Origin: Candidatus Nomurabacteria bacterium
GTDB taxonomy: Bacteria > Patescibacteriota > Saccharimonadia > Saccharimonadales > JAGQNJ01
Direction: 5' to 3'
DNA length: 64,000 nucleotides
NCBI GenBank assembly: GCA_023898625.1
Contig: CP060231.1
Coordinates: 413,986-477,985 of the forward strand
The notes beneath the pieces were generated by a model. That model was not told the origin of the DNA, made no database searches, and worked only from the letters and a program-made list of their open reading frames with translations. The position numbers and the translations under genes are program-made. The number at the start of each line of letters is the position of its first letter. Position 1 is the stretch's first letter. This document shows, one piece after another, positions 6,585 to 32,511 of this stretch.

Positions 6585-6860
6585 CTCTTGGATATGAGCG
6601 GTATGTTCTCCAGCTTCAACTCCGATCTTAGCTCTTGGAATACTAGCAATGTTACGGATATGAGCGGTATGTTCTCTAGCGCCTCCAGCTTCAACTCCGA
6701 TCTCAGCTCTTGGAATACTAGCAATGTTACGGATATGAGCGGTATGTTCTCTAGCGCCTCCAACTTCAACTCCGATCTCAGCTCTTGGGATACCAGTAAT
6801 GTTACGGATATGAGCTGGATGTTCGGTGGCGCCTCCTCTTTTGATCAATCACTTGCCTCT
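6150..6860 (+). repeat. Near-perfect 78-bp (26-codon) tandem DNA repeats inside the giant gene
   Basis: The unit gatatgagc(t/g)(a/g)tatgttctctagcgcctcc(a/c)(g/a)cttcaactccgatctcagctcttggaatactagcaatgttacg is repeated about 9 times with over 95% identity. Units between about 6455 and 6620 carry short deletions. Confidence 0.9.
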
Positions 6861-9800: not shown

Positions 9801-12800
9801 GTTGGAAGACAGCATAATTCTTCTTTGTTAAATATTGCAAATTCATCATTTAATGGGAATGTCTCCTCAAGAGCGTATAATTATTCTGATAATTTATCAT
9901 ACTCGGGTGGACTAGTTGGATATTCATACTCAACAGGAATGGAATATATCGATAGGTGGTCTCTTTTAATTCCCTCGAACTATTTAGGAATTTCGGGGGT
10001 ATCAATTACAAATAGCTCCGCGAATGCTACTGTTCATACTGAATTAGCTAGATTTGGTGGCGGAGCAGGTGGCTTAGTAGGAAGGGCAACTGTTATCAAT
10101 GTGGTTGGCTCAAGTGCTCACGGTAATACTCTAGTCGATCAAATATATGCAGATAATCTAACAGGTCCAACGTATAGCGCGGGTGGTGTAGTTGGAGAAT
10201 CAGGAATATCTTCGATAACCTCATCTGATAGCGACAACCAGGTCACTGTTAATGCTACCGGAATGCAAGATCAGTCATACGCTATGCTATATGCAGGAGG
10301 TTATATTGGCCTTGGTGATATATATCAACATTTCAATCAATTAAATAGGGATGGAGATATTGTGATACATGGACGTAATGAATTACCGACAGATAATAAT
10401 TCTTATGGCATAATAGCGGCAGGTGGCTTAGCTGGTCTTGCCATGAGTTACAAAGAGTCAACTATCGAAAACAGTACGTCTTTGAGCGATATATCTATAG
10501 ATGGAGTCAGAGGTTCCACAAATATAAATATGAGTAAGTTTATTGGCGGTTTTGTGGGTGGCTTAGTTGGATTTGCTCAGAGTGACACAAACTATGTAAT
10601 TAAGAATAGTTCTACTAGTGGTAATCTTGTGGGTACTGGCAACTCATCAAGTACACCAACCGATTTCATGCATTATTTAACCTCAGCAGGAGGTTTAATA
10701 GGACAATATCTTGGCTCAACTCTTAATCATAATACTACTATCACAGGTAGTTTGAATATTCAAAATTCGCAAAGTAGCTCTAATGTATCTGGAAAATCTC
10801 TTCCTATGAGCAGAGCGTATGCGAGCTATAGTGGAGGGGTTGGAGGTTTGGTCGGATCATTTACCTCAAGTGGGGGCAGTATTGAGCGTTCATTTTCACA
10901 AGGCGATGTCAACGGCACAAACGTAGGTGGCTTAGTCGGAAAGGCTGCATCTTATGGTGAGAGCTCGTTTTCAATCAATGATACGTACTCCACAAGTAAC
11001 GTTGTTAGTTCTAATTTGATAGTCGATGCAGAAATTGATGATCAGTTAAAAAAGATTGGTTTTAGTGGATCTGCGGGAGGTTTGGTTGGGACAATAGCTG
11101 GCGTAGACATCAATAGTTCTTATGCATCTGGAAGGGTTGAGGCGTCTGGATCAGTTGATATGATTGGTCTTGGTGTGAATAATGTTATGGTTAGTCAATC
11201 ATCAGATACTTCATTATCAAGAGTAATTTATGCTTTTAATAGCGTTGCTGGGGGGCTCGTAGGACGTTATATTCAGAATACACCAGTCGCCCAAGACGCA
11301 TTATCTGGTAGTTATATAACAAAAAGTTTCGCGACCAGTAAACTAGTCAGCCCAAATGGTAGTGAGCAAGGTGCTATTATTGGCGAATATTTTGATTACG
11401 CAACAATAGCTAGTGTGATTAATCCTGAGTTTAATATTGATAATTTAGATATTGTTAGTACACAGGATTCGTTAAGTCATGTATATCATGATCGATTTGT
11501 AACAGATTCAAATATTTGTGGTAATGAGATCTATATAACGAGCTATACGCCAGCCATTCCTGAAAATAATATACCTGAAATTGTGACTTCTGACTTTCGT
11601 GATTCTTTTAGCTGTCACCCCATCAACACCGACGGCTCTCAACCTAACTACTTCAAGAACAATTCTACCAACCCCCCCTTGAATCAATGGAACTTCTCTA
11701 CTATATGGAAGACTAACTGTACTAACTATCCAGACTTTGTAGGCTCAACCAACTGTAATCCATCCAACCCTCCAGAAAACCCAGGTAACGGCAATCCTCC
11801 AACCACCCCTACAACTCCAACCACCCCTACAACCCCAACCAATCCTCCAAAGACTCCTAGTACCACTAAACCACCTACTCCCACAGAATCAGACACCCCT
11901 TCATCTTCATCCAATAATCAGTACTACTCCAACCCTCAATCTACAGCACTACCAGCTCCCCTATCTAAAGTAGTCAAAGGTTCCTTCATGCAATCTCTAG
12001 TGAACTATACTGCTAACAATATACCTAAACCCGTAGCTAAAGCCATTCCATACAGCCTACTCATACTTCTACTAGCTCTCTCAGCCCTCTATGGCTATTC
12101 TAGCTATCTAGAAAACAAAAGAAGACAAGCTCTCCAAGCTCTCATCACTCGCTTTAAATCTCTACTATCGGCTAGAGCTACCTTCCTACGTATTACCTCC
12201 CACTACATCAATACACCGATCACTAAGATCCAAGGAACCATAGAACTACTAGCTATGGGTACTACTTCAACCACAACTGCTAATACCACAACAGCAAGTA
12301 CCAACACCACAAACAATAACTCAAGTACTAACAATAACTCTACAGGCTCTAATACCAACCCTCCTACTAATACCAGCTCTACTCCTCCAAGTAACACTAC
12401 TAGCTCTACCAGTAATCCAGGCACTACCTACACCCCTAACTCTAGCTCTCAGTCTGGTTCAGCTTCCGTAAACAGCTCTAGCAATCAGGCTAGTACCACC
12501 AGCTCCATCAGTTCTACTCCTAGCTCCCCTAATAGCATTAGTATACCTATTAATACTAACTCTAGCTCTCAGTCTGGTTCAGCTTCCGTGTTCACCTCAA
12601 CCCTAGCCACTACAGCTACCACTCTAACTATCCCAGAAGCCTCTATCGTAGCCTCTAAGTCAGCCATCAAGAGTCTCACTAACCATGCCAATGAACTACT
12701 AGATGAAGGACAATCCCTCACCGGAAGACAACAAGCTAACATCAGAAACCTAGAACAAAGAAAAGGACTTAGCTTCCTAACCCATCCTTTCTTCTGGCTC

Positions 12801-13721
12801 CCAGTAGTAGTTATCTCTACCTTAGTAGTACTACTCAACATCATCTTCATTCAAGCTGAACGCTATACCCCTACAGCTATTACTATTGCTTCTCAACTTA
12901 TCCTAGGCTTCGTTGGTGTTATAGCTTTAGGTGTCAGCTACTACTTCTACCGTTCCTTCCAGTCCCAAAGACAAGCTCTACTAACCGAACAAGAAATAGA
13001 ACAAGAGTTCAATGCTCGCCAAGCTAACTTCATAGCTGATGCCTACAACAAGCTCAACGATGACATCATAATCCTAGAAGGTGTCAGCCAAGACCTAGCT
13101 AAGTATCCTAAAGTCCGTAACTTCAACCAAGGCCTCAATGAACTAAAAGACATAGTCTCCCAACTAGAAAAACTCAGCAACCTATCTAAGCATGTCCCAG
13201 GACTGCAATACCACACCAACCTAAGCAGTACTATATCTACTACCCTAACTAACCTCAGATCCCTAGCTGACCAACAGAACATCACTATAACTACCAACAA
13301 CATCAAACCCAACCAAAACGTCAACATAGAAGCTAATGCCCTAACCCATCTACTGTCAGCTCCACTCAAGAACGCCATCTCAGCTAGTACTGCTGGCTCT
13401 AATATAGAACTATCCCAATCTATCCACAAAGCTAACAAATCTAGCCAGATAAATAAACCTAACACAGTAACCACTAACCCTAACAATACCAACCTACCTA
13501 TCCAAATAACTATTACCGATCATGGCAAAGGCATACCCCCAGAACAACTAAACAATATCTTTACCCCATTCAACTCAGCCCATAGCCTAGAACACTTCAC
13601 TGATACCGGACTAGGACTAGACCTCTACCTATGCAAAGTAATTACAGAACAATACAACGCCAACCTAACCATCACCAGCCAACCAGGAGAAGGCACAACA
13701 GTGATAGTGGGGATGGGGTGA
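6588..13721 (+). CDS. Giant surface repeat protein, C-terminal part: DUF285 repeats, FN3 domains, NHL-type beta-propeller repeats, GLUG (GGLVG) motif repeats, Pro/Thr linker, TM helix, histidine-kinase H-box, S/T/N-rich low-complexity insert, two TM helices, C-terminal HATPase_c
   Basis: Continuous 2377-codon ORF. FN3-like segments (LSAPRNLTAEVTSSTSILLAWQAPEYDGGSSISDYTIQYKP). NHL-like repeats (QGNIYTINSSNYNNKVLKFDTSGNLIDSWG). More than 15 GGLVG/GGVVG GLUG motifs. PTTPTTPTTPTTPTNPP linker. H-box LRITSHYINTPITKIQGTIELL. HATPase_c N/G1/F/G2 boxes (LTHLLSAPLKNAI; ITITDHGKGIPPEQLNNIFTPF; DTGLGLDLYLCKVI...GEGTTVIV). Confidence 0.8.
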   Translation: MDMSGMFSSFNSDLSSWNTSNVTDMSGMFSSASSFNSDLSSWNTSNVTDMSGMFSSASNFNSDLSSWDTSNVTDMSWMFGGASSFDQSLASWNMGSVTSAESMFGDPVEYYITMLEAMAGVPASEWDNSVAESVMGPGATVDDLFAYLSSIVGAEVTQANYTDFMNIEMGLSTVNYDATLTGWSSQSLQSGVTFGAGDSNYCNSETQRQNIITNYSWTINDSGKDCNFELSAPRNLTAEVTSSTSILLAWQAPEYDGGSSISDYTIQYKPTNDSAWIVLNDGISTNLNATVTSLSPGQSYDFRVSAVNSNGAGPYAETTKLLSMQTLPGVPEGFSATAYNYVDDEVNTTIYALPSLSWQEPQQGSPIDYYTLQFRKSGESAWRNYVDASIVTTNINFDFSFSSMDLQDVNNNTQEQIDLLNELNQAMILGESYEFRVAANNNLGQGLFTDPISFVPSFTTNDCSVLHDLLQMYGIKDRDSDVALNAHFVLLQNIDCSDTINWNSGDGWSPIPNDPQYVFNGEFDGNDHSINNMYINNSTDIGVGMFGILKDTNITNLSLINSNVSGHIYYDSDEGGSGSYVGILSGIASSDTTITNVTVSGSVYSEWSAGGVVGYSDSDNAGNIMINWVTSHANVSAAKGTFSGGPVGGLVGINYGGDRSQGQFTQGKFVVDTQGNIYTINSSNYNNKVLKFDTSGNLIDSWGNEGNDLDEFNQFAPNDISIDAQNNIYFSGVKKFNSNGGFEGQYGNYLGYVYVDNSDNIYVVGETDYYNGTPQAIHKINAEGTLLASFFTKEEVVGRENASPSDIVVGQNGDIYVAERYSNQVRRYDSNGIYIGSIELVNGNNELMITNDNHLYALGNGSISQYDLLGNLTLSIPSYSLPSYMTADEDSNIYVSNNSTHELTKYSPSGIEVGSLDAGYKADEIYAPGKIVIHGEYMYVASDYGKAIKIFNKDTFSYINKIDGKKDDNPYKTLIVDSSANGQLNAKYSGGLVGANTGNAIEDVFEVPGLELQHTNASVTINDACTFAGGLIGLTLVGTRIEDSSSGGNVSCKGGDFLDSSTSVDISTGGLVGRQHNSSLLNIANSSFNGNVSSRAYNYSDNLSYSGGLVGYSYSTGMEYIDRWSLLIPSNYLGISGVSITNSSANATVHTELARFGGGAGGLVGRATVINVVGSSAHGNTLVDQIYADNLTGPTYSAGGVVGESGISSITSSDSDNQVTVNATGMQDQSYAMLYAGGYIGLGDIYQHFNQLNRDGDIVIHGRNELPTDNNSYGIIAAGGLAGLAMSYKESTIENSTSLSDISIDGVRGSTNINMSKFIGGFVGGLVGFAQSDTNYVIKNSSTSGNLVGTGNSSSTPTDFMHYLTSAGGLIGQYLGSTLNHNTTITGSLNIQNSQSSSNVSGKSLPMSRAYASYSGGVGGLVGSFTSSGGSIERSFSQGDVNGTNVGGLVGKAASYGESSFSINDTYSTSNVVSSNLIVDAEIDDQLKKIGFSGSAGGLVGTIAGVDINSSYASGRVEASGSVDMIGLGVNNVMVSQSSDTSLSRVIYAFNSVAGGLVGRYIQNTPVAQDALSGSYITKSFATSKLVSPNGSEQGAIIGEYFDYATIASVINPEFNIDNLDIVSTQDSLSHVYHDRFVTDSNICGNEIYITSYTPAIPENNIPEIVTSDFRDSFSCHPINTDGSQPNYFKNNSTNPPLNQWNFSTIWKTNCTNYPDFVGSTNCNPSNPPENPGNGNPPTTPTTPTTPTTPTNPPKTPSTTKPPTPTESDTPSSSSNNQYYSNPQSTALPAPLSKVVKGSFMQSLVNYTANNIPKPVAKAIPYSLLILLLALSALYGYSSYLENKRRQALQALITRFKSLLSARATFLRITSHYINTPITKIQGTIELLAMGTTSTTTANTTTASTNTTNNNSSTNNNSTGSNTNPPTNTSSTPPSNTTSSTSNPGTTYTPNSSSQSGSASVNSSSNQASTTSSISSTPSSPNSISIPINTNSSSQSGSASVFTSTLATTATTLTIPEASIVASKSAIKSLTNHANELLDEGQSLTGRQQANIRNLEQRKGLSFLTHPFFWLPVVVISTLVVLLNIIFIQAERYTPTAITIASQLILGFVGVIALGVSYYFYRSFQSQRQALLTEQEIEQEFNARQANFIADAYNKLNDDIIILEGVSQDLAKYPKVRNFNQGLNELKDIVSQLEKLSNLSKHVPGLQYHTNLSSTISTTLTNLRSLADQQNITITTNNIKPNQNVNIEANALTHLLSAPLKNAISASTAGSNIELSQSIHKANKSSQINKPNTVTTNPNNTNLPIQITITDHGKGIPPEQLNNIFTPFNSAHSLEHFTDTGLGLDLYLCKVITEQYNANLTITSQPGEGTTVIVGMG

Positions 13722-13807: not shown

Positions 13808-14278
13808 ATGGATATTTCATCAGGTAGCAATGAAAAAGTTAAAGAATCAAAATCAGCATCACCTTCAAAGAAGAAGCTGACACCAAAGCAAAGAAAGATA
13901 ATCTTCTCAATAATTGTTGTTTTGTTATTAGTTTTTGCTGGCATAGGAATTTATAAGTATGCTTACGATAAAGGATATGATAAGGGCATGGAAGCGGGTA
14001 AGAAGGCTAGCGCTTCAAAGAGTCCAACTGATTTATTTAGCAATCTCCAAAATCCATTTAAAACACTTACTGGTTCTGTAGAAAAATTAGAAGGTGAAAA
14101 ACTTACGATTACGACAAGTAAAGGTGAAGTAAAAACACTTAAAATAACTGACAAGACCAAGATAACCAAAAAGACAGAGACGTTGAACAAGGATTCTTTA
14201 ACTAAGGGTGCTAAGGTTACTATCTTTACTACGGGCGAAGGTGATAGTTTGAGTGCTACTAGAATAGTAGTAAGATAG
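13808..14278 (+). CDS. Hypothetical membrane-anchored protein (156 aa)
   Basis: Strong RBS AAGGAGG upstream; N-terminal Lys-rich tail plus TM (IIFSIIVVLLLVFAGIGIY); Lys/Thr-rich beta-type C-terminal region. Confidence 0.55.
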   Translation: MDISSGSNEKVKESKSASPSKKKLTPKQRKIIFSIIVVLLLVFAGIGIYKYAYDKGYDKGMEAGKKASASKSPTDLFSNLQNPFKTLTGSVEKLEGEKLTITTSKGEVKTLKITDKTKITKKTETLNKDSLTKGAKVTIFTTGEGDSLSATRIVVR

Positions 14279-14324: not shown

Positions 14325-14975
14325 ATGAAGAAGAAATCATCTAGGCTTTCAAAAAAATATAAGATTATTATATTTACGATAATGGTTTTATTTATTGTTG
14401 GTATTTTTATTGTTACGAAAAGACATAAGAATACTGAAAAACCAAACGCACCAGAGACCGTTACATATTCTACCGATACCCCAGATGAATCTAAGGCTAA
14501 TGCTGATACGTATAGTTGGAAGGGTGCCGAAAACGATCCAAAGAAATTGCGTATTCAGTCGATTGGTGTCGATGCCTATGTACAACGTATGGGGGTTGAT
14601 CAGAATAATAAGATTGCTGTACCAAACAATATTCACCTCACAGGATGGTTTACTAATAGTCAACAACCTGGACAGGATGGTCTTTCAATAATCGCTGGTC
14701 ACGTTACTGGGAAAAAAGGCGACGGGGTATTTAAGCATTTGGGTGATATGAAAGCAGGGGATTTATTTGAGGTAGAAACCGGCAGTGGCGCAATCAAACA
14801 CTACAAAGTGATTGAAGTGAAACAGATGAAAGAATCTGAGTCAGCAGATTTTTTATTTTCTCAAAAACCTAACACTAAGAGCCAGCTTAATTTGATAACT
14901 TGTGGTGGTAGATTTGACTCATCAGCCCACATGTATGATGATAGGGTTATTGTGGTTGGTGAATTGCAAGAGTGA
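14325..14975 (+). CDS. Sortase (class E/F-like cysteine transpeptidase)
   Basis: N-terminal TM anchor, catalytic His in SIIAGHV, TLxTC-type Cys motif LNLITCGG, and a conserved Arg in YDDRVIVVG. Confidence 0.85.
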   Translation: MKKKSSRLSKKYKIIIFTIMVLFIVGIFIVTKRHKNTEKPNAPETVTYSTDTPDESKANADTYSWKGAENDPKKLRIQSIGVDAYVQRMGVDQNNKIAVPNNIHLTGWFTNSQQPGQDGLSIIAGHVTGKKGDGVFKHLGDMKAGDLFEVETGSGAIKHYKVIEVKQMKESESADFLFSQKPNTKSQLNLITCGGRFDSSAHMYDDRVIVVGELQE

Positions 14976-15064
14976 TTTACTGCAAGTTACTTGATGTAGC
15001 CTATAATTTTTATTATACTAAAGCTTATATAAGTATTTATCGAAAAACAGGGTAACAAACTAAT

Positions 15065-15721
15065 ATGCCAAGACTACCAATACCAGGGTCAGATAGAGGT
15101 CAGTGGGGCGATGTGCTCAATGAATACTTGAGGGTTTCCCATAATGAAGACGGTACCCTGAAGGGATCGTTAATTTCAGGTCCTGGCGCTACCGGTGCCA
15201 CCGGCCCACAAGGCCCAGCTGGTTCACAAGGCGCAACGGGTGCTACTGGCGCTGGTTCTACCGGTGCCACCGGCGCCACTGGACCGCAAGGTGTAGCTGG
15301 TTCTCAAGGCGCCACCGGAGCTGGATCTACAGGTGCCACCGGGCCACAAGGAATAGCTGGTGTAGCTGGAGGTGCTGGTGCTACCGGCGCCACTGGACCG
15401 CAAGGTGTAGCTGGTTCTCAAGGCGCCACCGGAGCTACTGGCGCTGGCGTTACGGGAGCCACCGGACCACAAGGGCCAGCTGGTTCTGCTGGTACTCAAG
15501 GTGCAACGGGCGCTACCGGAGCTGGTGCTACAGGTGCCACCGGACCACAAGGAATAGCTGGTGTAGCTGGAGGTGCTGGCGCCACCGGCGCTACTGGCCC
15601 GCAAGGCGTAGCCGGTAATTCGGGTGAAGGTGTTATTGTAGTGGCTTCAAACTGGGTTACAACTGATGGATTGCCTTCAGGAACTCCAACAGGAACAATT
15701 ATTCTTAGGAGAAAGCCATAA
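15065..15721 (+). CDS. Collagen-like triple-helix repeat protein (Gly-X-Y), no signal peptide
   Basis: About 45 consecutive G-X-Y triplets ([16 protein letters not shown]...), GC-rich relative to its flanks; N-terminal region without a hydrophobic leader. Confidence 0.8.
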
Positions 15722-16177
15722 ATGGGGTTGGTTCTCGGGAAAGATGGTAAAACTCGATCTGTTGAAATTAACACAGGCTCAGCTGTGTCTCAAATTTCTA
15801 CTCTTTATGTCGGGTTGCTACAGTCTGCCCCAGCAAATATGGACGGTATGGATTTAGCGACTTTAATATCTTCTGGTCAAGGAAATGAGTTTACGATAGG
15901 TGCTTCGTTTTATACTGGTAGAAAATCAATAACAGTAGGTTCTATTAGTGCCGATGAAAATGGTGCAATTTGCTATAACAATAACGGTAGTCCTGTTGAG
16001 TGGACAAATACAACCGGCTCTGACGTTAATGTGCTAGCTTTTTTTATTACGGACGTTGCTAGTGGTGGATCTGGCAAAGTTTTATGGGTTGGAACACCAG
16101 ACGCTGGCACTGCAACAATCGGCAACACATATAAGGCAAGTATTTCTGCAAACGATTTAATGCTCAAGGTAGACTAA
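15722..16177 (+). CDS. Hypothetical protein (151 aa), translationally coupled to the collagen-like gene
   Basis: ATG directly abuts the TAA of the upstream gene (TAAATG); no signal peptide; no known domain. Confidence 0.55.
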   Translation: MGLVLGKDGKTRSVEINTGSAVSQISTLYVGLLQSAPANMDGMDLATLISSGQGNEFTIGASFYTGRKSITVGSISADENGAICYNNNGSPVEWTNTTGSDVNVLAFFITDVASGGSGKVLWVGTPDAGTATIGNTYKASISANDLMLKVD

Positions 16178-18970
16178 GTGGCAACTAACGTATCAGTATC
16201 AGTTGCTCAGTCTACTCATGATGGGTTCCAAGCATGGAATCAGCGAGGAAATGCAAGTGGCGTAGACTTTACTACGGCTCTAAAGTATCCAATTATTGGG
16301 CCACACTATGATGATTCTTTATTTCTTGCAACATTCTATATTTTTAAGTTTGATAATGTTCCACAGGGGTCTCAAATTAGTTCATGCACATTAAGCCTAA
16401 GAACAAACAACGCATATACCGGTGGATTAACAAATCACATTTATGTCGCGGTTGAAAATAATTTGGATGTTAATGGCTCAGGAGCGGTGGTCAATGGAAC
16501 TTTAGGCTCAATGCCGTGGCAGAGGCTGGGTCGACAGACTGCCTCAACAACACTGTTCGGTAACAGATGTGGTCCAACTCACAATAAGGCTGGTTTTGAT
16601 CTATCGAATTATGGTGCTCATGTGCGTGATTCTAGCGCACTAATATATAAGGCGTTTTGCACAAATCAAAGTAGTGGTTCGGCGCTTGGTAGAGATTTGA
16701 GTGCGGGGAGTTGGGTGGATACTGAAAATTTTGCATCTGCCATTCAGCCATTAGTTAATGATTCTGGATGGAATAGTACTACTCAGTATGTCATGGTCTA
16801 TTTATTCGCTGATGATGATTCTGGTACAACTTATAATGTCGGTAATCTAGGAAGCTTTACTTGGGATAACGGTACGGTTGGTGCGACTGGATATGGCAAT
16901 GGTAACGGCCAAAACTACTTTTACGACCAAAGTGCTGGTTTATATGCGCCAAAGATTAATTTAACATACACATCTGCGTCACTAAAGGCAGTTAATTCGG
17001 GCTCTTTAAGTTCAGGCAATGTTCGATTAAGACCAGCATTATGTTTGGGGAGTGCAAGCGGAACTAGGGTAGAGCTTTTATTAGGCAATGGAGTAATACC
17101 AAAAATGACAGCTGGTGCGGGAGATAAATTATTCACCTGGATGGATTCTTATAATCCGAATGGTACGGCTTGGGGTGCTTCAGGAGGGAATCCTCCTGGT
17201 GCCAGAATAAAATGGGATGGTATTCGGCCAGGTCGTGTAGATGGAACATCAATATTCTTAGAAGATTATCCAGGGGATACTCCAAGGTTAAGTTGGCAGA
17301 TTGGTGAATATCAATCTGAATATTCTAGCAGAAATGTATATTCATTACGTTTTTATCATCGTTACGAGGGTAATTCTGGTACTGTAACAGATAATGGGGT
17401 TGTAGAAATTCTCAATGGAGGAGCAGGACAATTCCGGATTGAGCACAAGCATTATGATGGATCAACCCTTATGCAATTAAGAATTGCTTGGTCTGGCAAC
17501 GCAACCGCTTGGACTAGTTATCAATTTACTCCACCTGCTGGCAATGGATACTACAGATATGAAATACAGGTTGATTCAACTCAAACCCCAAAGGTCAGAC
17601 TACGCGTATATTTAAATGATAACACCACGCCAATCGAAACATTAACTGCAAGTCCACCAAATGTTGAGATGGATGAAGTTCGTTTTGGAGGATTCGATAC
17701 TGATACTACGCCACTAATGAGCTCTAGGCTTTCAGACGTTGAAATCTGGACTGATTATTTGCTTAACAGGAGGTATCCAGACTCTCTGACTAATACGGTT
17801 GGAACACCATATGAGCCACAGAAATGGGCATGGTTTGAATATGATGGTACTACATCAAAGCAATTGGATGATCTAGGTGAAGTTAGCTCAATTGATGGTG
17901 GTGGTGGCAGTGTTGTTTTGGATTCCTCAAAAGCACTGACTTATGAAGATATAAAGGCGGAGCTTTGGACGGGCGCGACACCCAACTATACCCTGTATTC
18001 AGATTTAAGTTATGGCGCAGGAAATTATCGTAAACTTGATCTATACATACCTACAGGCACGCCTCCTGCAAATGGTTGGCCAGTAATATTATGGGCGCAT
18101 GGAGGCTACTGGTCATCTGGAAACAAGACCACAATCCCTAATCAGTTTGTCCGAAACTGTTGCCTTAAAGGCTATGCGGTTGCGTCACTAGAGTATGTGT
18201 TGCACACAGTGATAACATCAGGTGCAGGTAGTTACCCCGCCTGGGATCCAAATACTGCCTCTGGGCGTTATCCAACTATGATATTGAACTACAAAGAAGC
18301 AACATATTGGCTAAAAACTAAATCTTCAACAAATAGCGGAGGAGATGGTACGTATAATATTGATGCAGGTAAGTTCATTGCATCTGGTCATTCAGCTGGA
18401 GGATACAATGCACTCGGTGCTGTAGTAAGTAAAGGCTTGACTAATGATGGTGGTGGACGTGATCTTACTTTAGCCGGAAACGTGGGCTCTTTTGGTTGCC
18501 CAAACGTAGCAGATCCAACATATCTGGGCGCATATATTGTGGCTGGACCAATCAATTTAAATTATCTTAAATCTTGGGATCCTACACATCCAGACTGGCC
18601 ATATTTAGATGCTGGGGCAGGAAGTATCTATGCGACATGTCGCGTGTTTCGGGGTGAGAATTACAATAATGGTGTTGGGGATGTTAACAACTGTGGCATT
18701 GACGACATGGTCTTACTTAATCCTTCTGTCATACCAAGCATTGCATATGCTTGGGCCCCCTCTGATAATGTCGTTGTCAGTAATCCGCGGACTCCTTATT
18801 CTCAAGAGAAAAGGCTTTCTGATGTAATGACAACCGTGGCGGGCTCGCTACCTCCAACTACTACTTATGAAGGATATGAGGTCTATGACGCCTTGCATCA
18901 CACGATACACGACGTAGATTTTGATTTTCAACATTTTTTCAGATGGCTAGAATCATTACCAGGACTATAG
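16178..18970 (+). CDS. Large protein with LamG/concanavalin-like jelly-roll region and C-terminal alpha/beta-hydrolase (esterase/lipase) domain
   Basis: GTG start abutting the upstream stop. C-terminal LDLYIPTG..GWPVILWAHGGYWSSGNK (oxyanion HGG motif) and nucleophile elbow GHSAGG. Mid-region resembles a lectin/LamG jelly roll. No N-terminal signal peptide. Confidence 0.7.
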   Translation: MATNVSVSVAQSTHDGFQAWNQRGNASGVDFTTALKYPIIGPHYDDSLFLATFYIFKFDNVPQGSQISSCTLSLRTNNAYTGGLTNHIYVAVENNLDVNGSGAVVNGTLGSMPWQRLGRQTASTTLFGNRCGPTHNKAGFDLSNYGAHVRDSSALIYKAFCTNQSSGSALGRDLSAGSWVDTENFASAIQPLVNDSGWNSTTQYVMVYLFADDDSGTTYNVGNLGSFTWDNGTVGATGYGNGNGQNYFYDQSAGLYAPKINLTYTSASLKAVNSGSLSSGNVRLRPALCLGSASGTRVELLLGNGVIPKMTAGAGDKLFTWMDSYNPNGTAWGASGGNPPGARIKWDGIRPGRVDGTSIFLEDYPGDTPRLSWQIGEYQSEYSSRNVYSLRFYHRYEGNSGTVTDNGVVEILNGGAGQFRIEHKHYDGSTLMQLRIAWSGNATAWTSYQFTPPAGNGYYRYEIQVDSTQTPKVRLRVYLNDNTTPIETLTASPPNVEMDEVRFGGFDTDTTPLMSSRLSDVEIWTDYLLNRRYPDSLTNTVGTPYEPQKWAWFEYDGTTSKQLDDLGEVSSIDGGGGSVVLDSSKALTYEDIKAELWTGATPNYTLYSDLSYGAGNYRKLDLYIPTGTPPANGWPVILWAHGGYWSSGNKTTIPNQFVRNCCLKGYAVASLEYVLHTVITSGAGSYPAWDPNTASGRYPTMILNYKEATYWLKTKSSTNSGGDGTYNIDAGKFIASGHSAGGYNALGAVVSKGLTNDGGGRDLTLAGNVGSFGCPNVADPTYLGAYIVAGPINLNYLKSWDPTHPDWPYLDAGAGSIYATCRVFRGENYNNGVGDVNNCGIDDMVLLNPSVIPSIAYAWAPSDNVVVSNPRTPYSQEKRLSDVMTTVAGSLPPTTTYEGYEVYDALHHTIHDVDFDFQHFFRWLESLPGL

Positions 18971-19023
18971 GTGTGATTCTTTTACAACAGCTTGCTTTCC
19001 GCAGTAAGTGCTAGTATTTAATT

Positions 19024-20187
19024 ATGAAAAAGAGTAGCCAAATGACATTTCATGTAGTTTCGCTTCCACACACTCAAACGACAATGGAATATGAAGCGTG
19101 TGCCTATACATCTAAAACCAGAAAGTTCTGTAATATGATGAAATCACTAGGGCATAAAGTGTATCTATACGCATCTGAGGAGAATGAGGCAAATGTTGAC
19201 GAGTTGATTACGATTGCGCCAAAAGATGATCAGCAAAAATGGTTCGGCGACAACGACTTTAAGCAAAATTTTTTCAACTTAACCTGGAATATTGAGGATG
19301 AGCATTGGCAGAATACTAACAGACGTGCAATCAGCCAAATAAAAAAACGAATTAATAAAAAGGATTTTATTTGCATTATTGGTGGCGTTTGTCAAAAGCA
19401 AATTGCCGATGCATTCCCAGCGCACATGTCTGTTGAGTATGGTATTGGTTACGAGGGGGTTTTTGCACCATTTAGGGTATACGAATCGTATTCTCATATG
19501 CACTATGTGCAAGGAAAATTAAATGATGACAACGGAAGGTTCTACGACGCAGTCATCCCAAACTACTTCGAGCCAGAAAACTTTCAGTTCAAGAATAAAA
19601 AAGAAGATTATTTTTTGTTTCTAGGGCGATTTATACCTCGAAAAGGTGTAGAGATTGCTGTAGAAGTTACAAGAAGATTAGGTAAACGACTGGTGTTGGC
19701 AGGGCAAGGAGTTAGTAAGGTAGAAGGAAATACTATTTATGGCGATGACTTTTCGGTTAGTGGGGATCATATTTTGCATGTCGGGCATGCAAATGTTGCT
19801 CAGCGGTCGGCTTTGCTTCGTAACGCAACCGCAACTTTTATGGCGACGACCTATATTGAACCTTTTGGTGGGGTGGCAATCGAAAGCCTGCTTTGTGGAA
19901 CCCCAGTAATAGCTACGGATTTTGGGGCATTTGCCGAGAATATCCAGCATGGAGTTCACGGCTATAGGTTTAGGACAATTGGTGAGGCAGTATGGGGTGC
20001 TAAGAATGTCCACAAGTTAAATAACAAAGTAATCCATGAGTATGCCGTAGAAAACTTTAGCGTAGAACGGGTTAAGTATCTATACCAAGCATATTTTGAG
20101 CAACTGCAAACATTGTGGGAAGAAGGATTCTATTCAAACTGGGATAAAGGTGTCGCTAAATATCAAAGATATAAAAAGTTCTCGTAG
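19024..20187 (+). CDS. Glycosyltransferase family 4 (GT-B, GT1 superfamily)
   Basis: LFLGRFIPRKGVEIAVEV and the E-X7-E motif EPFGGVAIESLLCGTPVIATDFGAFAE. Confidence 0.8.
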   Translation: MKKSSQMTFHVVSLPHTQTTMEYEACAYTSKTRKFCNMMKSLGHKVYLYASEENEANVDELITIAPKDDQQKWFGDNDFKQNFFNLTWNIEDEHWQNTNRRAISQIKKRINKKDFICIIGGVCQKQIADAFPAHMSVEYGIGYEGVFAPFRVYESYSHMHYVQGKLNDDNGRFYDAVIPNYFEPENFQFKNKKEDYFLFLGRFIPRKGVEIAVEVTRRLGKRLVLAGQGVSKVEGNTIYGDDFSVSGDHILHVGHANVAQRSALLRNATATFMATTYIEPFGGVAIESLLCGTPVIATDFGAFAENIQHGVHGYRFRTIGEAVWGAKNVHKLNNKVIHEYAVENFSVERVKYLYQAYFEQLQTLWEEGFYSNWDKGVAKYQRYKKFS

Positions 20188-20222
20188 ATATCACTATCGT
20201 GAATGTTTTAATATAGTTACTT

Positions 20223-22070
20223 TTACCTCACCCCAGTATTCGGACTCCCCACAGCTAACGTAGCTAAGCCTACAGGGTCTTTGATAATGCCAGTTGTTTT
20301 GTCTAAGTCTAAATCACCATTGTCAGTAATAGTATAGGTTAGTAGTAGAGCATGCTGGTTATTATGAGTAGTTTCAGTAATAGTAGCATTGTCTAATGTA
20401 GTATAGCCCTTAGTGCTAGGATCATACTTTTTAGCTATTACCTGATTTGGTTTTAAGTCGGTAACAAATAGTAACGACACTGTGTTGTCTGTAGTAGATG
20501 TACTAAAGCTAAAGTCTATTAAGCCTAATGGATAATTATAGCCAGAGTCTTGAACTGCTAGTGATGATTCTTTAACAGCCACAAAGTTAGATAGTGTAGT
20601 ACTAGTCGGAAGATCTAGAACTACAGTCTTACTATCTTCTGCATTAGGTATAGAGTTACTACCCCCTGTTTTATAGGTATAGATAATCTCATTAGCTCCA
20701 GTAGTAGATAAGGCTAGAGTAGTAGGAGGAGTAGATACTAGACTATAGCCAGAGATATTAGGAGCAGAAGGCAAATCTACTGTATCTCCTACCTTGTAGT
20801 AAGCATTAATATCTTTAGAAGGATTATCCTTGAGTAGATAGTTAGTTAGTGTAGTACTAGAACCAGTGTCATAACCAGTGATAGTAGATGATGGCAATAA
20901 ATCATTACCAGACCCATCCTGATACTTAACTACAGCACGGGAGGGGTTGATGAGAGTCATAAGAAGAATATCGCTAGTATCACCATTGCCATTAGAATCT
21001 GGCATGCCAAAGTCTGCCTCTGTCATTGCTAGATCAGCCAGTCCTAAAATTGTAGCTTGGCTTGGGTCGATATAAACGTTGCAAGTCTTCGTCCCATCTA
21101 TCAAAGCTTGAAAAACTGACGGGCTATATCCCGAATTTGCATAATCTATATATGTAGGAGTATCCGGAACTGTCTGCCCTCCGATTGATGTACTGCTCAT
21201 TGTTGTAACAGAACTAGGGATAAAGACCTCACTTAATTGATCGGCGTTAAATACAAAAGAGCCCAAACTTGTTACTGAGTTAGGTATGTTTATGCTTGTG
21301 AGCTGATTAAACATGAATGCATGGTCACCAATACTTGTTACTGAGTTAGGTATGGTTACGCTAGTGAGTTGATTGTCCTGGAACGCAGCGTTGCCAATAC
21401 TTGTTACTGAGTTAGGTATAGTTACGCTGGTGAGTTGATTGTCCTGGAACGCAGCGTTGCCAATACTTGTTACTGAGTTAGGTATAGTTACGCTGGTGAG
21501 TTGATTATAAGCAAACAACCCTGTATTCATAGATGTCACCGAATTTGGTATTGTGACATTTGTGAGCAGATTGTTCTCAAACGAACTTTCACCCATATAT
21601 ATCACCGAATTGGGTATTGTCACGTTAGTTAGTTGGTTGGCATAAAAAGCAGAGTTGCCGATAGTAGTAACAGAACCAGGGATAGTTACGCTAGTTAGTT
21701 GCTCGTTGTCCATAGCATAGTCTCCTATCACGTTCACCGCTACACCACCAATAGTACTAGGTATATCTACAGCCTTAGGGCAAGCTGGATCACTTGGATT
21801 GTTGTTTTCGTGCTCGTAGTAACCTGTAATAGTATTAGTACCAGCATTAAAGTTAAAACAGCTATCCGGAGGAGTTATAGCATAGGCTTTATTAGTAGGT
21901 ATTAAGGCTAATGTAGTAGATAAAGCTAACACTAAACTAATAGCTATTAATGATGCAGAAACAGAAGCAGGCTTTAGATAAGCCATAAACTTATTAGTAC
22001 CCTCAATTGTTTTGTTATCTTTATAACAACCAAACATAGAAACACTAAACTTTTGCATTAACGACTTCAA
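20223..22070 (-). CDS. Surface protein with BspA-type leucine-rich repeats and conserved C-terminal domain ending ...DPVGLATLAVGSPNTGVR
   Basis: N-terminal TM/signal (VSASLIAISLVLALSTTLALI); more than 10 repeats of LTSVTIPNSVTSIGNAAFQDNQ (LRR_5/BspA type); C-terminal roughly 120 aa shared with the protein at 31333..32511. Confidence 0.8.
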   Translation of the reverse strand: MKSLMQKFSVSMFGCYKDNKTIEGTNKFMAYLKPASVSASLIAISLVLALSTTLALIPTNKAYAITPPDSCFNFNAGTNTITGYYEHENNNPSDPACPKAVDIPSTIGGVAVNVIGDYAMDNEQLTSVTIPGSVTTIGNSAFYANQLTNVTIPNSVIYMGESSFENNLLTNVTIPNSVTSMNTGLFAYNQLTSVTIPNSVTSIGNAAFQDNQLTSVTIPNSVTSIGNAAFQDNQLTSVTIPNSVTSIGDHAFMFNQLTSINIPNSVTSLGSFVFNADQLSEVFIPSSVTTMSSTSIGGQTVPDTPTYIDYANSGYSPSVFQALIDGTKTCNVYIDPSQATILGLADLAMTEADFGMPDSNGNGDTSDILLMTLINPSRAVVKYQDGSGNDLLPSSTITGYDTGSSTTLTNYLLKDNPSKDINAYYKVGDTVDLPSAPNISGYSLVSTPPTTLALSTTGANEIIYTYKTGGSNSIPNAEDSKTVVLDLPTSTTLSNFVAVKESSLAVQDSGYNYPLGLIDFSFSTSTTDNTVSLLFVTDLKPNQVIAKKYDPSTKGYTTLDNATITETTHNNQHALLLTYTITDNGDLDLDKTTGIIKDPVGLATLAVGSPNTGVR

Positions 22071-28915: not shown

Positions 28916-30041
28916 ATGCAACAGATATATACTGAATCATTCTTGAGGGGTTATGCTCGTAAGACTATGAGATCTATACAAGACATAACCCAACACCCAT
29001 ATAAACATGTAATTGAGCAAAGACTCAAGATAATTCAGTTCTATGATGATTTCGGGGAACAAGCCACCAGACAAGCTTTTAGCGTAAGTAGGAGCACTGT
29101 GTTCAGCTGGAAGAGGCGTCTAAAGGATAACAATGGCTCACTCAGATGTTTAGCTCCAAAGAGCACTGCACCAAAACACAAACGCAAGCGAATGGTAGAT
29201 ATGCGTATTACTAACTTTATTCTAGAACAAAGAAGCTTACACCCTAAGCTAAAGTAAAGATAAGCTGAAGCCGTATTACTCAAAGATGAGTGTACAGCTT
29301 GGAATCTAAAACCACCTTCGGCATCTACCGTAGGTAGAATCCTCAAAGACTTAAGTTTCAAGGCCTATTACCAAAATATACCAGGTTAACCGTTTCAGGT
29401 GCTACCGGCAAACTACTTGAGAAACAAAAGTCGTAAGCCAAGACTCAATAAACAACCGCAGGAATGGTTATCAGCCTGAGCAACCAGGAGATATGCTACA
29501 GATGAGACACTATTGTTAAGTTTATAAACGGTATACGCCGTTATGTACTTACAGCAGTAGATTACAAAAGGTAGATTCGGCTTTGCCTATGGCTATACTA
29601 GCCCCAGTAGTACCAACGCAGCAGACTTCCTGAACAAACTGCAAGCTGTTACCCCATTTGAGATCAGACGAGTGCATCATGAGCAATGGTAGTGAGTTCT
29701 ACAAACACTTCATAAGAGCCTGTGATGAACGAAACATTGAACAGCTCTGGAACTATCCCAAAAGACCTAAGAATAACGGAATGGTTGAAAGATTTAACCG
29801 TAGCATCCAAGAAGAGTTTATAGACTGGAACCTAGATAATCTAGCCTATGACCTTGAGGATTTCAATAATTCATTGATGGACTGGTGTATATGGTATAAC
29901 ACAAAAAGACCACATTATGGACTTGGTTTAAAAAGTCCAATGCAGTACTTACTAGAAGTGTTACAATTAAGCCAACAGGAGTCCAGAATGTTATGGACGG
30001 ATACACCTCCTTGCACTCTCCCCTTATATCATCTATCATAA
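28916..30041 (+). pseudogene. IS481-family (DDE/rve integrase-core) transposase, frameshifted pseudogene
   Basis: N-terminal HTH part intact (ORF 28916..29257, ...SRSTVFSWKRRL...). Middle readable only in other frames (..TVGRILKDL.., ..FINGIRRYVLTAVDYK..). C-terminal rve fragment in ORF 29658..30041 (SNGSEF, NGMVERFNRSIQEEF, YNTKRPHYGLGLKSP). Confidence 0.75.
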
Positions 30042-30249
30042 GCACTATAAGAAATAATTTCTTATATAACATTAAATTAATAAAAAAGAGGGTGTAATAA
30101 ATAAACTAACCATGAAAGACCTACTAACTAAGCTATCTATAACAAAACAAAGTAAAAATTATAAACTATCTAAGTACTATCCCTACTATTCACTATAACC
30201 ACCCTCATACCATTAACCACCAATACAGCCAATGCTACACCACTACCTA

Positions 30250-31332
30250 CTGAGTGTGCCTGAGCATGCCTGGACCGTTGGCACGAACGATGGTATTAAA
30301 CTCAATATCCCTAAGACGTAACCACCGACGCCTCTGGCAATGTCTATGTCGCAGATTCTGACAACAATCGCATCCAAGTTCGACTCTTCTGGAACCTTCC
30401 TAGCTAAGTGGGGAACATATGGCTCAGCAGATGAGTGAGTTTGACTCTCCCCAAGGCATAACCACCGACGCCTCTGGCAATGTCTATGTCGTAGATACCT
30501 ACAACTACCGTATCCAGAAGTTCACCTCCACCGGCACCTTCCCTAGCTAAGTGGGGAGACATCTGGCTCAGCAGATGGTGAGTTTGACTCTCCCCAAGGC
30601 ATAACCACCGACGCCTCTGGCAATGTCTATGTCGTAGATACCTACAACTACCGTATCCAGAAGTTCACCTCCACCGGCACCTTCCTAGCTAAGTGGGGAA
30701 CATCTGGCTCGGCAGATGGGAGTTTGCTATCCTCTGCCGGCAACCACCGACTCCTCCGGCAATGTCTATGTTGCAGATTCTAGCAACAACCGTATCCAAA
30801 AGTTCGACTCCACCGGCACCTTCCTAGCTAAGTGGGGAACATATGGCACAGCAGATGGTGAGTTTAATACACCTCGTGGCATAACCACCGACACCTCCTG
30901 GCAATGTCTACGTGGCAGATACAACAACAACCGCATCCAAAAGTTCGACCCATCCGGCACTTTCCTAACCAAATGGGAGCAGTAACGGCTCGGCAGATGG
31001 TGAGTTTAATACTCCTCGGCGCAACCACCGACACCTCCGGCAATGTCTATGTTGCAGATTCTAGCAACAACCGTATCCAAAAAGTTTGACTCCTCTGGAA
31101 CTTTCCTACTTAAATTTGGTATGCCTAGCAGTGAAAACGGTAAATTCTACTTCCCATATAGCATCGCCACCGACTCCTCCGGCAATGTCTACGTCGCCGA
31201 TACAGCAACAACCGCATCCAAAAGTTCATGCTCCACTGGCACCTTCCTAGCCAAATGGGGCAGTAATGGCTCAGCTGATGGGGAGTTTAATGCACCCCTA
31301 GCATCACCACCGACTCCTCCGGCAATGTCTAT
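30250..31332 (+). pseudogene. Decayed 5' portion of an NHL-repeat propeller gene (141-bp tandem repeats with multiple frameshifts), continuous with intact ORF 31333..32511
   Basis: Repeated TTD(T/S)SGNVYVADS.NNRIQKF.STGTFL.KWG...ADGEF..P.GI units are readable only by hopping frames. Indels sit in homopolymers (ccaaaaagtttgac, ttccctagc). Confidence 0.65.
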
Positions 31333-32511
31333 GTGACTGATATGGGCAACAACCGAATCCAAAAGTTCACCTCCACCGGCACCTTCCTCACCAAGTGGGG
31401 AGCTACTGGCTCGGCAGATGGTGAGTTTAATCACCCTCGTGGCATCACCACCGACTCCTCCGGCAATGTCTATGTGACTGATATGGGCAACCGCCGCATC
31501 CAAAAGTTCAACTCCACCGGCACCTTCCTAGCCAAATGGGGCAGTAGTGGTTCAGCCGATGGAGAATTTAATGATCCTTTTGGCATTACCACCGACTCCT
31601 CTGGCAATGTCTATGTAGCCGATATGGGCAACAACCGCATCCAGAAGTTCGATGCTAACGGCACCTTCCTCACCAAGTGGGGAGCATCTGGCTCGGCTGA
31701 TGGGGAGTTTAGCTATCCTGCCAGCATCACCACCGACTCCTCCGGCAATGTCTATGTGACTGATATGGGCAACAACCGAATCCAAAAGTTCACCTCCACC
31801 GGCACCTTCCTCACCAAGTGGGGAGCTTCTGGCTCGGCTGATGGGGAGTTTAATTCACCCGTAGGCATCACCACCGACTCCTCCGGCAATGTCTATGTAG
31901 CTGATTCTGGCAACAACCGCATCCAAAAGTTCGCCTACCCTAGCGAAGAACCTGAAACCCCAGAAGAACCTTCCTCCGACTCTGATGGTATCCCCGACAC
32001 CATCGAAAACTCTTCCCCCAACTCTGGCGATGCTAACAACGATGGCATAGCCGATAGCACTCAAGCTAATGTAGCTAGCTATGTTAACCCAGTAACAAAT
32101 AGCTATGTAGTACTCCAAACATCTAGTGAATGTAGTATCACTGCCACTACTACAACTAGTGAAGATAACCTAACTATAAAAGACTCTGGCTATAACTATC
32201 CAGTAGGACTAACTAACTTCACTACTGACTGTAACACCCCAGGCTTTACTGCTACCATAAATCTCTACTACTACAACCTAGATAGTACTAACTACACTCT
32301 AAGAAAACATAACCCTAACAATAACTCTTTCCTTACTATAGCTAACCCTACACTAACTAACCTAACTATAGACAATAAACCAGTAACCAAAGTAACCTAC
32401 CAAGTTACTGACGGACAACAACTAGACATAGACAACACCACTAACGGAACCATAGTAGACCCAGTAGGCCTAGCTACACTAGCTGTAGGAAGTCCTAATA
32501 CGGGGTTGTAA
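31333..32511 (+). CDS. NHL-repeat beta-propeller surface protein with conserved C-terminal domain ending ...DPVGLATLAVGSPNTGL
   Basis: Five 47-aa NHL repeats, an acidic P/E/S linker, then a roughly 120-aa C-terminal domain shared with the LRR protein at 20223..22070. Confidence 0.75.
   Translation: MTDMGNNRIQKFTSTGTFLTKWGATGSADGEFNHPRGITTDSSGNVYVTDMGNRRIQKFNSTGTFLAKWGSSGSADGEFNDPFGITTDSSGNVYVADMGNNRIQKFDANGTFLTKWGASGSADGEFSYPASITTDSSGNVYVTDMGNNRIQKFTSTGTFLTKWGASGSADGEFNSPVGITTDSSGNVYVADSGNNRIQKFAYPSEEPETPEEPSSDSDGIPDTIENSSPNSGDANNDGIADSTQANVASYVNPVTNSYVVLQTSSECSITATTTTSEDNLTIKDSGYNYPVGLTNFTTDCNTPGFTATINLYYYNLDSTNYTLRKHNPNNNSFLTIANPTLTNLTIDNKPVTKVTYQVTDGQQLDIDNTTNGTIVDPVGLATLAVGSPNTGL

Follow-up and report, generated by a model that had tools for sequence, protein, structure and literature searches.

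Where does a sortase find its substrates when none of the usual kind is encoded around it? This question is raised by a 64,000-nucleotide stretch of a Candidatus Nomurabacteria genome (contig CP060231.1, positions 413,986 to 477,985), referred to here in its full length as the window. It contains a sortase gene beginning at position 14325, and two open reading frames (ORFs) for surface proteins, one with leucine-rich repeats (LRR) and one with NHL repeats, that end in the same pentapeptide, SPNTG. All six frames of the window were scanned for sortase pentapeptides no more than 45 residues from a stop, and these two were the only plausible ones, in agreement with the original prediction that the window has no canonical substrate in which LPXTG is followed by a transmembrane (TM) segment and a lysine/arginine tail. 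As had also been predicted, SPNTG lies at the extreme C-terminus with no hydrophobic or charged tail, the LRR protein (copy 1) ending in SPNTGVR and the NHL protein (copy 2) in SPNTGL before a TAA stop. On balance, we lean towards the reading that tail-less proteins of this kind are substrates of an adjacent class-F-like sortase, which would anchor them to the cell wall. All of the evidence for such a system comes from comparative genomics, and the loci are largely metagenome-assembled.

The two proteins were compared using BLASTP, which aligned their C-termini only. A single significant segment joins residues 483-614 of the LRR protein to residues 259-392 of the NHL protein (54/134 identities, 40%; E 3e-24). 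The earlier description of a C-terminal module shared by unrelated ectodomains is thereby borne out, and the consensus given for it (DSGYNYP.GL ... TY..TD ... DPVGLATLAVGSPNTG) agrees with the alignment. Both proteins were searched against Pfam and NCBIfam, and matches at E<=0.1 were considered. The module matched the NCBIfam choice-of-anchor U model, NF041766, with 45.0 bits for copy 1 (residues 508-603) and 54.9 bits for copy 2 (residues 284-381) against a curated cutoff of 32 bits. The matches cover positions 2-91 of the 92 in the profile and end at DPVGL. By both score and position, the shared module is a choice-of-anchor U domain that was catalogued already, and novelty is confined to the ending and does not extend to the 120-residue module. 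The family owes its name to its position just before alternative C-terminal anchors. Known models of C-terminal sorting signals (LPXTG anchor, PEP-CTERM and the type IX secretion system C-terminal domain) gave no match to the C-terminal region in the Pfam and NCBIfam searches at E<=0.1, and the module does not fall into a family unrelated to sorting. Only one sorting-type name occurred among the matches, ScyF ('PEP-CTERM protein'); it scored far below its cutoff and aligned with residues 2-118, in the NHL region. Neither copy has a TM segment.

The last 134 residues of the LRR protein were modeled with AlphaFold2 from a 22-sequence alignment. The model has nine beta strands and a mean predicted local distance difference test (pLDDT) score of 92; along its last ten residues, AVGSPNTGVR, the score declines from 73 to 45. 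SPNTG is thus predicted to lie on a short, exposed, flexible tail just past the last strand of a beta-sandwich. The module is present as first described, although the predicted fold takes in about 125 residues and so reaches slightly beyond the range of roughly 120 residues originally assigned to it. Foldseek with this model matched no solved (PDB) structure at E<0.07, and abstracts from the 'choice-of-anchor' literature dealt with subjects other than this domain.

The LRR module ends in ...DPVGLATLAVGSPNTGVR and the NHL ORF in ...DPVGLATLAVGSPNTGL. Across the 16 terminal codons (DPVGLATLAVGSPNTG), the two window copies differ by 8 synonymous and 0 non-synonymous changes, which argues that the shared ending has been kept by purifying selection and was not copied recently. 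Recent gene conversion as the origin of the identical 16-residue tails was ruled out by the same eight synonymous differences. Past the stop of copy 1, the nearest gene is a convergent GT4 gene that ends at 20187, 35 nt away, and ftsH starts at 32569, 57 nt past the stop of copy 2. These distances leave no room, in any frame, for a hydrophobic or charged tail past either stop.

Relatives of the domain were sought with a profile search covering 1.84 billion cluster representatives (50% clustering), and 2538 representatives were found at E<=0.001, 870 of them at E<=1e-30. The genome scan for relatives used a 9-sequence tail-less alignment as its query. The comparison set comprised about 160 related loci in all, namely 79 genomic loci sampled by the domain and 80 metagenome loci sampled by the sortase. 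Tails were counted in 167 retrieved proteins and 114 domain copies (from the 79 genomic loci and the window), giving 264 distinct tails, about 150 of which carry a full sorting signal. The module is therefore not limited to the two paralogs of the window, and tail-less xPNTG endings alone occur in 66-67 distinct sequences, the higher figure coming from a second tally with slightly different criteria.

Three sortase-type endings recur in this census, and they differ in the spacing between the domain and the motif, counted from the D of DPxG (DPVG) to the first motif residue, and in what follows the G. In 90 tails, LAxTG is followed by a hydrophobic segment and a basic tail, with a spacing of 9-39 and 26-39 residues after G (a few have a long extension). 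Another 61 have xPxTG with a hydrophobic segment and basic tail, a spacing of 9-47 and, for most, 29-46 residues after G. The tail-less xPxTG endings (n=66) have no hydrophobic segment, a spacing of 11 in 62/66, and 1-16 residues after G, never 0. Length after G is thus bimodal, at 1-16 residues for tail-less and at least 26 for TM-tailed proteins, which marks the tail-less form as a discrete class and not as one end of a truncation continuum. That no protein stops at G fits the expected need of a scissile T-G bond for a leaving group. The tail-less pattern is xP(N/S/D)TG, with PNTG in 54/66, V, A, S, I or T at position 1, and LAxTG in 0/66. Although 50/67 tail-less relatives have at least one K or R, there is no basic cluster of the kind that follows a TM segment.

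The residues past the motif divide the endings differently. Tail-less proteins continue with [L/F/V/I]-G-(G/R), TM-tailed xPxTG proteins with [L/Y/F/V]-G, and LAxTG proteins with [E/Q/S/D]-[N/S], so that an extended motif, xPxTG-[L/F/Y/V]-G, is common to tail-less and TM-tailed xPxTG signals. The split points to two sorting specificities, and tail-less proteins would fall under the xPxTG one. On a neighbor-joining tree of the domain, the tail-less state requires about 27 changes, compared with about 53 when labels are shuffled; tails have evidently been exchanged or lost repeatedly, and the motif has nonetheless been kept. The domain of the LRR copy lies nearest to tail-less orthologs and then to relatives of the LAxTG type, and that of the NHL copy groups with other tail-less proteins. 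Given the TM-tailed relatives, the tail-less form looks derived. The domain immediately precedes whichever of these three C-terminal elements is present, or else PG_binding_1. The latter is found at L029 (~9500-12900), where two adjacent paralogs have the domain followed by PG_binding_1 (62.9 bits) and no sortase signal. Since PG_binding_1 takes the place of the sorting signal there, the position after the domain is, by sequence, an anchoring slot, and PG_binding_1 is a predicted third, non-covalent wall anchor at that locus.

Outside the window, tail-less proteins range from 500 to 1650 residues; their signal peptides are clear and their ectodomains diverse (GLUG, lectin, NHL, LRR), and public annotation calls them only 'leucine-rich repeat domain-containing' or 'GLUG motif-containing'. 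A further ending was observed in 13 loci (L018, L028, L040-L042, L044, L046, L053, L062, L063, L068, L071 and L079) and in protein P0077, in which an LAxTG-like motif and TM segment are followed by a conserved cytoplasmic extension of ~55 residues (Y.DYRKHKKPL...DP.VRYT.WHHL.VV.IPL..YR). Pfam has no match to this extension, which exceeds an ordinary charged tail by far in both length and conservation. At L001 (7596-10642), an 808-aa GLUG/C-type-lectin protein and the tail-less homolog P0002 (213 aa) share 22 nt, at the end of the former. The run of WDF..VW... and then NDGYPCLQW suggests that P0002 is a frameshifted 3' part of the gene for the 808-aa protein, and several short 'proteins' among the database matches are probably fragments of this sort.

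The link between the tail-less ending and a sortase is one of gene order. In the 79 domain-based loci, a same-strand sortase ortholog lies within 2 kb downstream of 20/42 tail-less copies, but of only 2/65 TM-tailed copies (Fisher p = 2.9e-8). Behind 15 tail-less copies, the matched part of the sortase starts no more than ~200 nt past the stop codon. The two TM-tailed exceptions, together with two more that have a distant sortase on the opposite strand, are mostly of the xPxTG+TM type. The sortases downstream of tail-less substrates are 36-62% identical to the window enzyme, and the distance from stop codon to sortase is typically -50 to +185 nt. The same association was recovered when loci were sampled by sortase alone. 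Among the 80 metagenome loci, ~21 upstream genes have a tail-less xPxTG ending, ~20 of these with the domain; 14 end in xPxTG+TM, with the domain in 4 of the 12 that could be evaluated; and no upstream gene ends in LAxTG. Gaps between stop and start range from -50 to +47 nt in this sample and are often overlaps, which suggests that substrate and sortase genes may be translationally coupled. The tail-less form is nearly always paired with the domain, and the TM-tailed form often is not. This synteny and the recurrence of the class lend support to the original prediction of SPNTG as a non-canonical sorting signal for the enzyme at 14325, with cleavage a putative step.

In the window itself, the LRR gene and the sortase gene are convergent and separated by a 5.2-kb block. 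The closest related loci, nearly all from metagenome-assembled genomes (MAGs) of Candidatus Saccharibacteria/Saccharimonadales, place the organism in that group and show how this arrangement may have arisen. L006, which has a sortase fragment 99% identical to the window enzyme, is collinear with window positions 14680-20551. At L075 (sortase 89% identical), a gene ending in DPVGLATLAVGSPNTGLR / ...TDNGELDLDNTTGIIKDPVGLATLAVGSPNTGLR is convergent with the sortase gene, and ~185 nt lie between its stop and the 3' end of the latter. At L059, the counterpart of the GT4 gene (window 19024..20187) abuts the sortase. The 5.2-kb block is absent from L075 and partly absent from L059, and the genes of 15065-18970 are missing at the corresponding position in both. 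From these arrangements, 15065-18970 looks like an insertion, perhaps phage-fibre-like or surface-fibre in nature, that split a formerly adjacent pair of sortase and substrate. The three genes of 15065-18970 encode a collagen-triple-helix repeat protein, a 151-aa match to Podophage fibre protein gp80, and a protein of 930 aa, one region of which is BD-FAE esterase-like.

The enzyme at 14325 is clearly a sortase by Pfam (Table 1), and its best NCBIfam class is class F (NF033748), with 120.3 bits (E 5.4e-35), below the curated cutoff of 166 bits. Class F is likewise the best class for all 15 members of its clade, all below cutoff, with 2.5e-36 the best E among them, and the enzyme is best called class-F-like and not a class F member. 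H126, C193 (in LITC) and R207 are invariant in the 15-member clade alignment and fit the catalytic His/Cys/Arg triad by analogy. The sortases of L001-L159 have a conserved extracellular stalk motif, [Y/F/H]ST[D/E]xPxE, between the TM segment and the catalytic domain; in the window enzyme it reads TYSTDTPDESK (residues 47-56, ~14463-14492). The motif occurs in 25/40 sortases that follow a tail-less substrate and in 4/23 that follow a TM-tailed one. A stalk lysine was considered as a fixed acceptor, and this idea was dropped because the lysine is not invariant in the clade alignment.

Two other genes upstream of the sortase were considered. The 156-residue membrane protein encoded immediately upstream has tblastn homologs that adjoin the sortase in L075 and L059 but lie elsewhere in L049 and L058, and this protein may lie outside the sortase system. 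Before it, ORFs 3672-6584 and 6588-13721 share one frame and are parted by a single TAG (6585-6587) within garbled DUF285 repeats. Read as one, 3672-13721 would give a product of over 3300 residues. It would combine a signal peptide and numerous DUF285 repeats with PKD, fn3, NHL and GLUG motifs, to which TM segments and a histidine-kinase-like C-terminus (HATPase_c) are added. Such a joining of surface protein and kinase is unusual, and it lies just before the sortase gene. This giant protein was rejected as a sortase substrate, as it has neither an xPxTG ending nor a choice-of-anchor U domain.

Table 1. Positions in the window of the sortase, its upstream neighbor, and the two proteins ending in SPNTG
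Feature	Position	Strand	Evidence
Single-pass membrane protein, 156 residues, immediately upstream of the sortase	13808..14278	plus	No family match
Membrane-anchored class-F-like sortase with N-terminal TM segment	14325..14975	plus	Pfam Sortase PF04203, 78.3 bits (cutoff 26.6)
BspA-type LRR surface-protein gene, 615 codons from first start	20223..22070	minus	ORF; Pfam LRR_5, 203.6 bits
Choice-of-anchor U domain, copy 1	20256..20624 (HMM match 20262..20549)	minus	NF041766; AlphaFold2 beta-sandwich, last strand IIKDPVGLATL
Flexible C-terminal tail AVGSPNTGVR (predicted)	20226..20255	minus	Sequence; low pLDDT
SPNTG pentapeptide, copy 1, followed by VR and TAA (20223..20225)	20232..20246	minus	Sequence
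Intact 3' ORF (392 codons) of NHL-repeat surface-protein gene	31333..32511	plus	Pfam NHL, 131 bits
Choice-of-anchor U domain, copy 2	32107..32490 (HMM match 32182..32475)	plus	NF041766, 54.9 bits; aligns with copy 1
SPNTG (32491..32505) and one residue, L, followed by TAA (32509..32511)	32491..32508	plus	Sequence

The two surface proteins of the original prediction do not stand on an equal footing. The LRR gene has a signal-peptide-like N-terminus (MAYLKPASVSASLIAISLVLALSTTLALIPTNKAYA) from codon 29, from which the protein is predicted to be exported. Its ortholog in L003 has 96% protein identity across the C-terminal 134 residues, and a member of its 90% cluster carries the NCBI product name 'leucine-rich repeat domain-containing protein' (Candidatus Saccharimonadales). 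Frameshifts break the 5' part of the NHL gene, of which the listed ORF is only the intact 3' third. NHL-repeat homology extends over ~30300-31930, with 11.5 copies of a 141-nt tandem repeat at 30319-31933. Between ~30100 and 31332, both a three-frame reading and tblastn with the L022 homolog show homology jumping among three frames, with many frameshifts and stops. A signal-peptide-like start near 30108 is out of frame with the NHL ORF, which as listed has no signal peptide. The window NHL gene is probably a pseudogene, or else was mis-assembled in the tandem repeats. L022 encodes an intact 810-aa protein with NHL repeats, the choice-of-anchor U domain and a tail-less ending, which indicates that this architecture is genuine. 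Directly upstream of the broken gene, degraded insertion-sequence remnants occupy 28916-30041 and consist of a 113-aa HTH_23 ORF and a 127-aa rve_3 integrase-core ORF with ~400 nt between them.

In the mechanism that we propose, the choice-of-anchor U beta-sandwich carries a short flexible tail, and [V/A/S]-P-N-T-G on this tail would serve as a minimal signal to the sortase. The proteins would be exported through Sec by their N-terminal signal peptides. The class-F-like membrane sortase would then recognize xPNTG and cleave between T and G, freeing a C-terminal peptide of 1-16 residues. It would pass the protein on to an acceptor amine, most likely that of the cell wall or of lipid II. The absent hydrophobic segment and charged tail normally retain a substrate in the membrane until the sortase acts, and two substitutes may be envisaged. 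The domain, held at a fixed distance of 11 residues from the motif, may dock on the sortase or on the envelope; this proposal, that the domain stands in for the missing membrane anchor, follows from its pairing with the tail-less form and from the fixed spacer. In addition, co-translation from overlapping or adjacent genes may bring substrate and sortase into proximity. What the domain is, the discreteness of the tail-less class, its rules of motif and spacing, its selection and its synteny with the sortase are shown directly, whereas we infer from sequence comparison that the sortase cleaves, which acceptor it uses and that the domain docks.

Several points weigh against anchoring by the sortase. 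In early work on Staphylococcus aureus protein A, loss of the hydrophobic segment or of the charged tail reportedly led to secretion and not to anchoring. About half of the tail-less copies elsewhere have no sortase within the sequence available, and the window copies themselves are not next to it, lying ~5.2-5.3 kb (LRR) and 17.5 kb (NHL) away. Copy 2 is in a degraded gene and may no longer be expressed. The clade sortases score below the class F cutoff, and both their preference for xPNTG and the cleavage of tail-less proteins are predictions. The docking role is proposed from the fixed spacing and the association of the domain with tail-less endings. The sorting signal has also been described as tripartite, consisting of motif, hydrophobic segment and charged tail (PMC3297441). 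A precedent for an untethered motif is nevertheless available, as soluble LPETG peptides are put into the staphylococcal wall by SrtA in living cells (PMC3929722).

The alternative that survives best, which we consider unlikely, is that the endings are relics. The TM segment and charged tail would have been lost, the proteins would be secreted or held non-covalently by the domain, and SPNTG would be a decaying or structural remnant independent of any sortase. Such a reading would accommodate the tripartite nature of the signal and the reported need of protein A for its hydrophobic and charged parts. It would likewise account for window copies that do not adjoin the sortase, one of them in a pseudogene-like gene, and for the frequent gain and loss implied by ~27 changes on the domain tree. 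A relic is expected to drift. The class is defined by P, T and G, whose invariance is therefore built in, but N too is kept in 54/66 tails, 62/66 share one spacing, at least one residue always follows G, and the preference for [L/F/V]-G at positions +1 and +2 is retained. The absence of non-synonymous change between the window copies, set against eight synonymous changes, argues in the same direction, and the tight, often overlapping operon linkage with the sortase would be left unexplained.

Rather improbable, in our view, is a sortase-dependent outcome other than wall anchoring. The enzyme might ligate its substrate to another protein or polymer (a surface layer or fibre), might remain joined to it as a long-lived acyl-enzyme, or might trim the C-terminus as a maturation protease. 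The synteny and motif evidence would be identical to that for anchoring, and one-to-one, translationally coupled pairs are more in keeping with a dedicated partner than with an enzyme for housekeeping anchoring. What class F sortases do physiologically is stated to be unknown, and Actinoplanes showed no phenotype when four of them were knocked out together (PMC13251363). Nothing points to an alternative acceptor, however. The stalk lysine is not invariant, and relatives with the same domain carry ordinary wall-anchor signals or PG_binding_1, which indicates the wall as destination.

A bolder reading, which we regard as quite doubtful, is that the tail-less ending and the domain make up a distinct mode of sortase targeting, in which the folded domain replaces the membrane anchor for retention or recognition and the substrate, never tethered to the membrane of its producer, is ligated in trans, to another surface polymer or even to the cell wall of the host bacterium. 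If this were true, LRR, NHL or lectin adhesins could covalently join epibiont to host, and these proteins would be the first predicted natural substrates for class-F-like sortases.

It is very improbable that the endings are artefacts of assembly or gene calling, of frameshifts hiding a TM segment, or of read-through or an alternative genetic code: the genomes are metagenome-assembled and the window does contain frameshifted genes (the NHL gene and the giant DUF285 protein), but both window genes end in TAA, 35 and 57 nt before the next gene, sortase genes at other loci start -50 to +47 nt from the stop with no space for a tail in any frame, dozens of assemblies made independently in different studies show the same type of ending, and ftsH and other long housekeeping ORFs remain intact under code 11. 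With no room for a tail past the stops, recoding or a hidden tail is ruled out.

Anchoring by an adjacent class-F-like sortase remains the reading that we favor. The closest related loci belong almost entirely to Saccharibacteria, which are obligate epibionts, and a few loci bear the labels of other phyla. L005, L043, L061 and L070 carry the domain in MAGs labelled Gammaproteobacteria or Burkholderiales, labels that are probably binning errors. L025, L060 and L066 carry it in MAGs labelled Nocardioides, Actinomycetota and Nakamurella; these loci could be genuine or could be epibiont contamination.

The endings represent a natural, conserved class of secreted surface proteins, with dozens of distinct members, that retains the motif only. 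If these proteins are true substrates, retention would be possible through a folded domain or gene coupling without a membrane anchor, and class-F-like sortases would gain a testable substrate set. Standard LPXTG predictors and annotation models, which require a TM tail, would then miss a large share of the surface proteins of Saccharibacteria, including LRR, NHL, GLUG and lectin types that are likely candidates for host attachment in epibionts. The domain, 11-residue spacer and PNTG could also double as a compact natural tag for sortase ligation.

Several known systems offer comparisons. Both window copies score above the cutoff of NF041766, as a C-terminal domain just before an anchoring element, but the family is a sequence model only, and a tail-less ending at fixed spacing is not known to form part of its definition. 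The LPXTG signal (TIGR01167; PF00746, Gram_pos_anchor) offers a further parallel, in that a P-T-G pentapeptide lies near the C-terminus of Sec-exported proteins with a sortase gene nearby, and in its TM-tailed members the domain family has all three parts of the signal. The tail-less class differs in having no hydrophobic segment, at most 1-2 basic residues, 1-16 residues after G, and V, A or S in place of L at position 1. In the window proteins the pentapeptide is present as SPNTG, a variant with S at position 1. A hydrophobic segment of ~15-20 residues is absent, with only 2 and 1 residues after G, as is a charged tail, copy 1 having one Arg and copy 2 no basic residue; neither protein matches TIGR01167 or PF00746 at E<=0.1 in NCBIfam or Pfam. 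The ending thus resembles an LPXTG-class signal in its proposed working, but is not a member of that class.

Substrates of Clostridioides difficile SrtB reportedly have (S/P)PXTG, with S or P at position 1 as in SPNTG. They are said to keep the hydrophobic domain and charged tail, and the enzyme is of class B, as opposed to class-F-like here, in an unrelated organism. A novel pilus of the candidate phyla radiation (2026 preprint) was also considered and is unrelated, being chaperone-usher-like. Full-text literature searches turned up no account of sortase signals lacking a tail, whether from Saccharibacteria or from other Patescibacteria. Class F sortases (Propionibacterium acnes SrtF and the paralogs of Streptomyces and Actinoplanes) are the best-scoring class for the window enzyme and share a single N-terminal TM segment and the invariant His, Cys and Arg, but the score of 120 bits lies below the cutoff of 166, and the characterized P. 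acnes enzyme uses LPXTG (PMC8225981). Sortagging with soluble LPETG is a further parallel, since a non-tethered motif with a short leaving group is accepted in vitro and on living cells (PMC3929722); that procedure is artificial and employs high substrate concentrations, whereas the tail-less arrangement would be a natural one. By comparison of sequences, it is the tail-less, fixed-spacing, sortase-linked ending that is new, and the domain that bears it was already catalogued.

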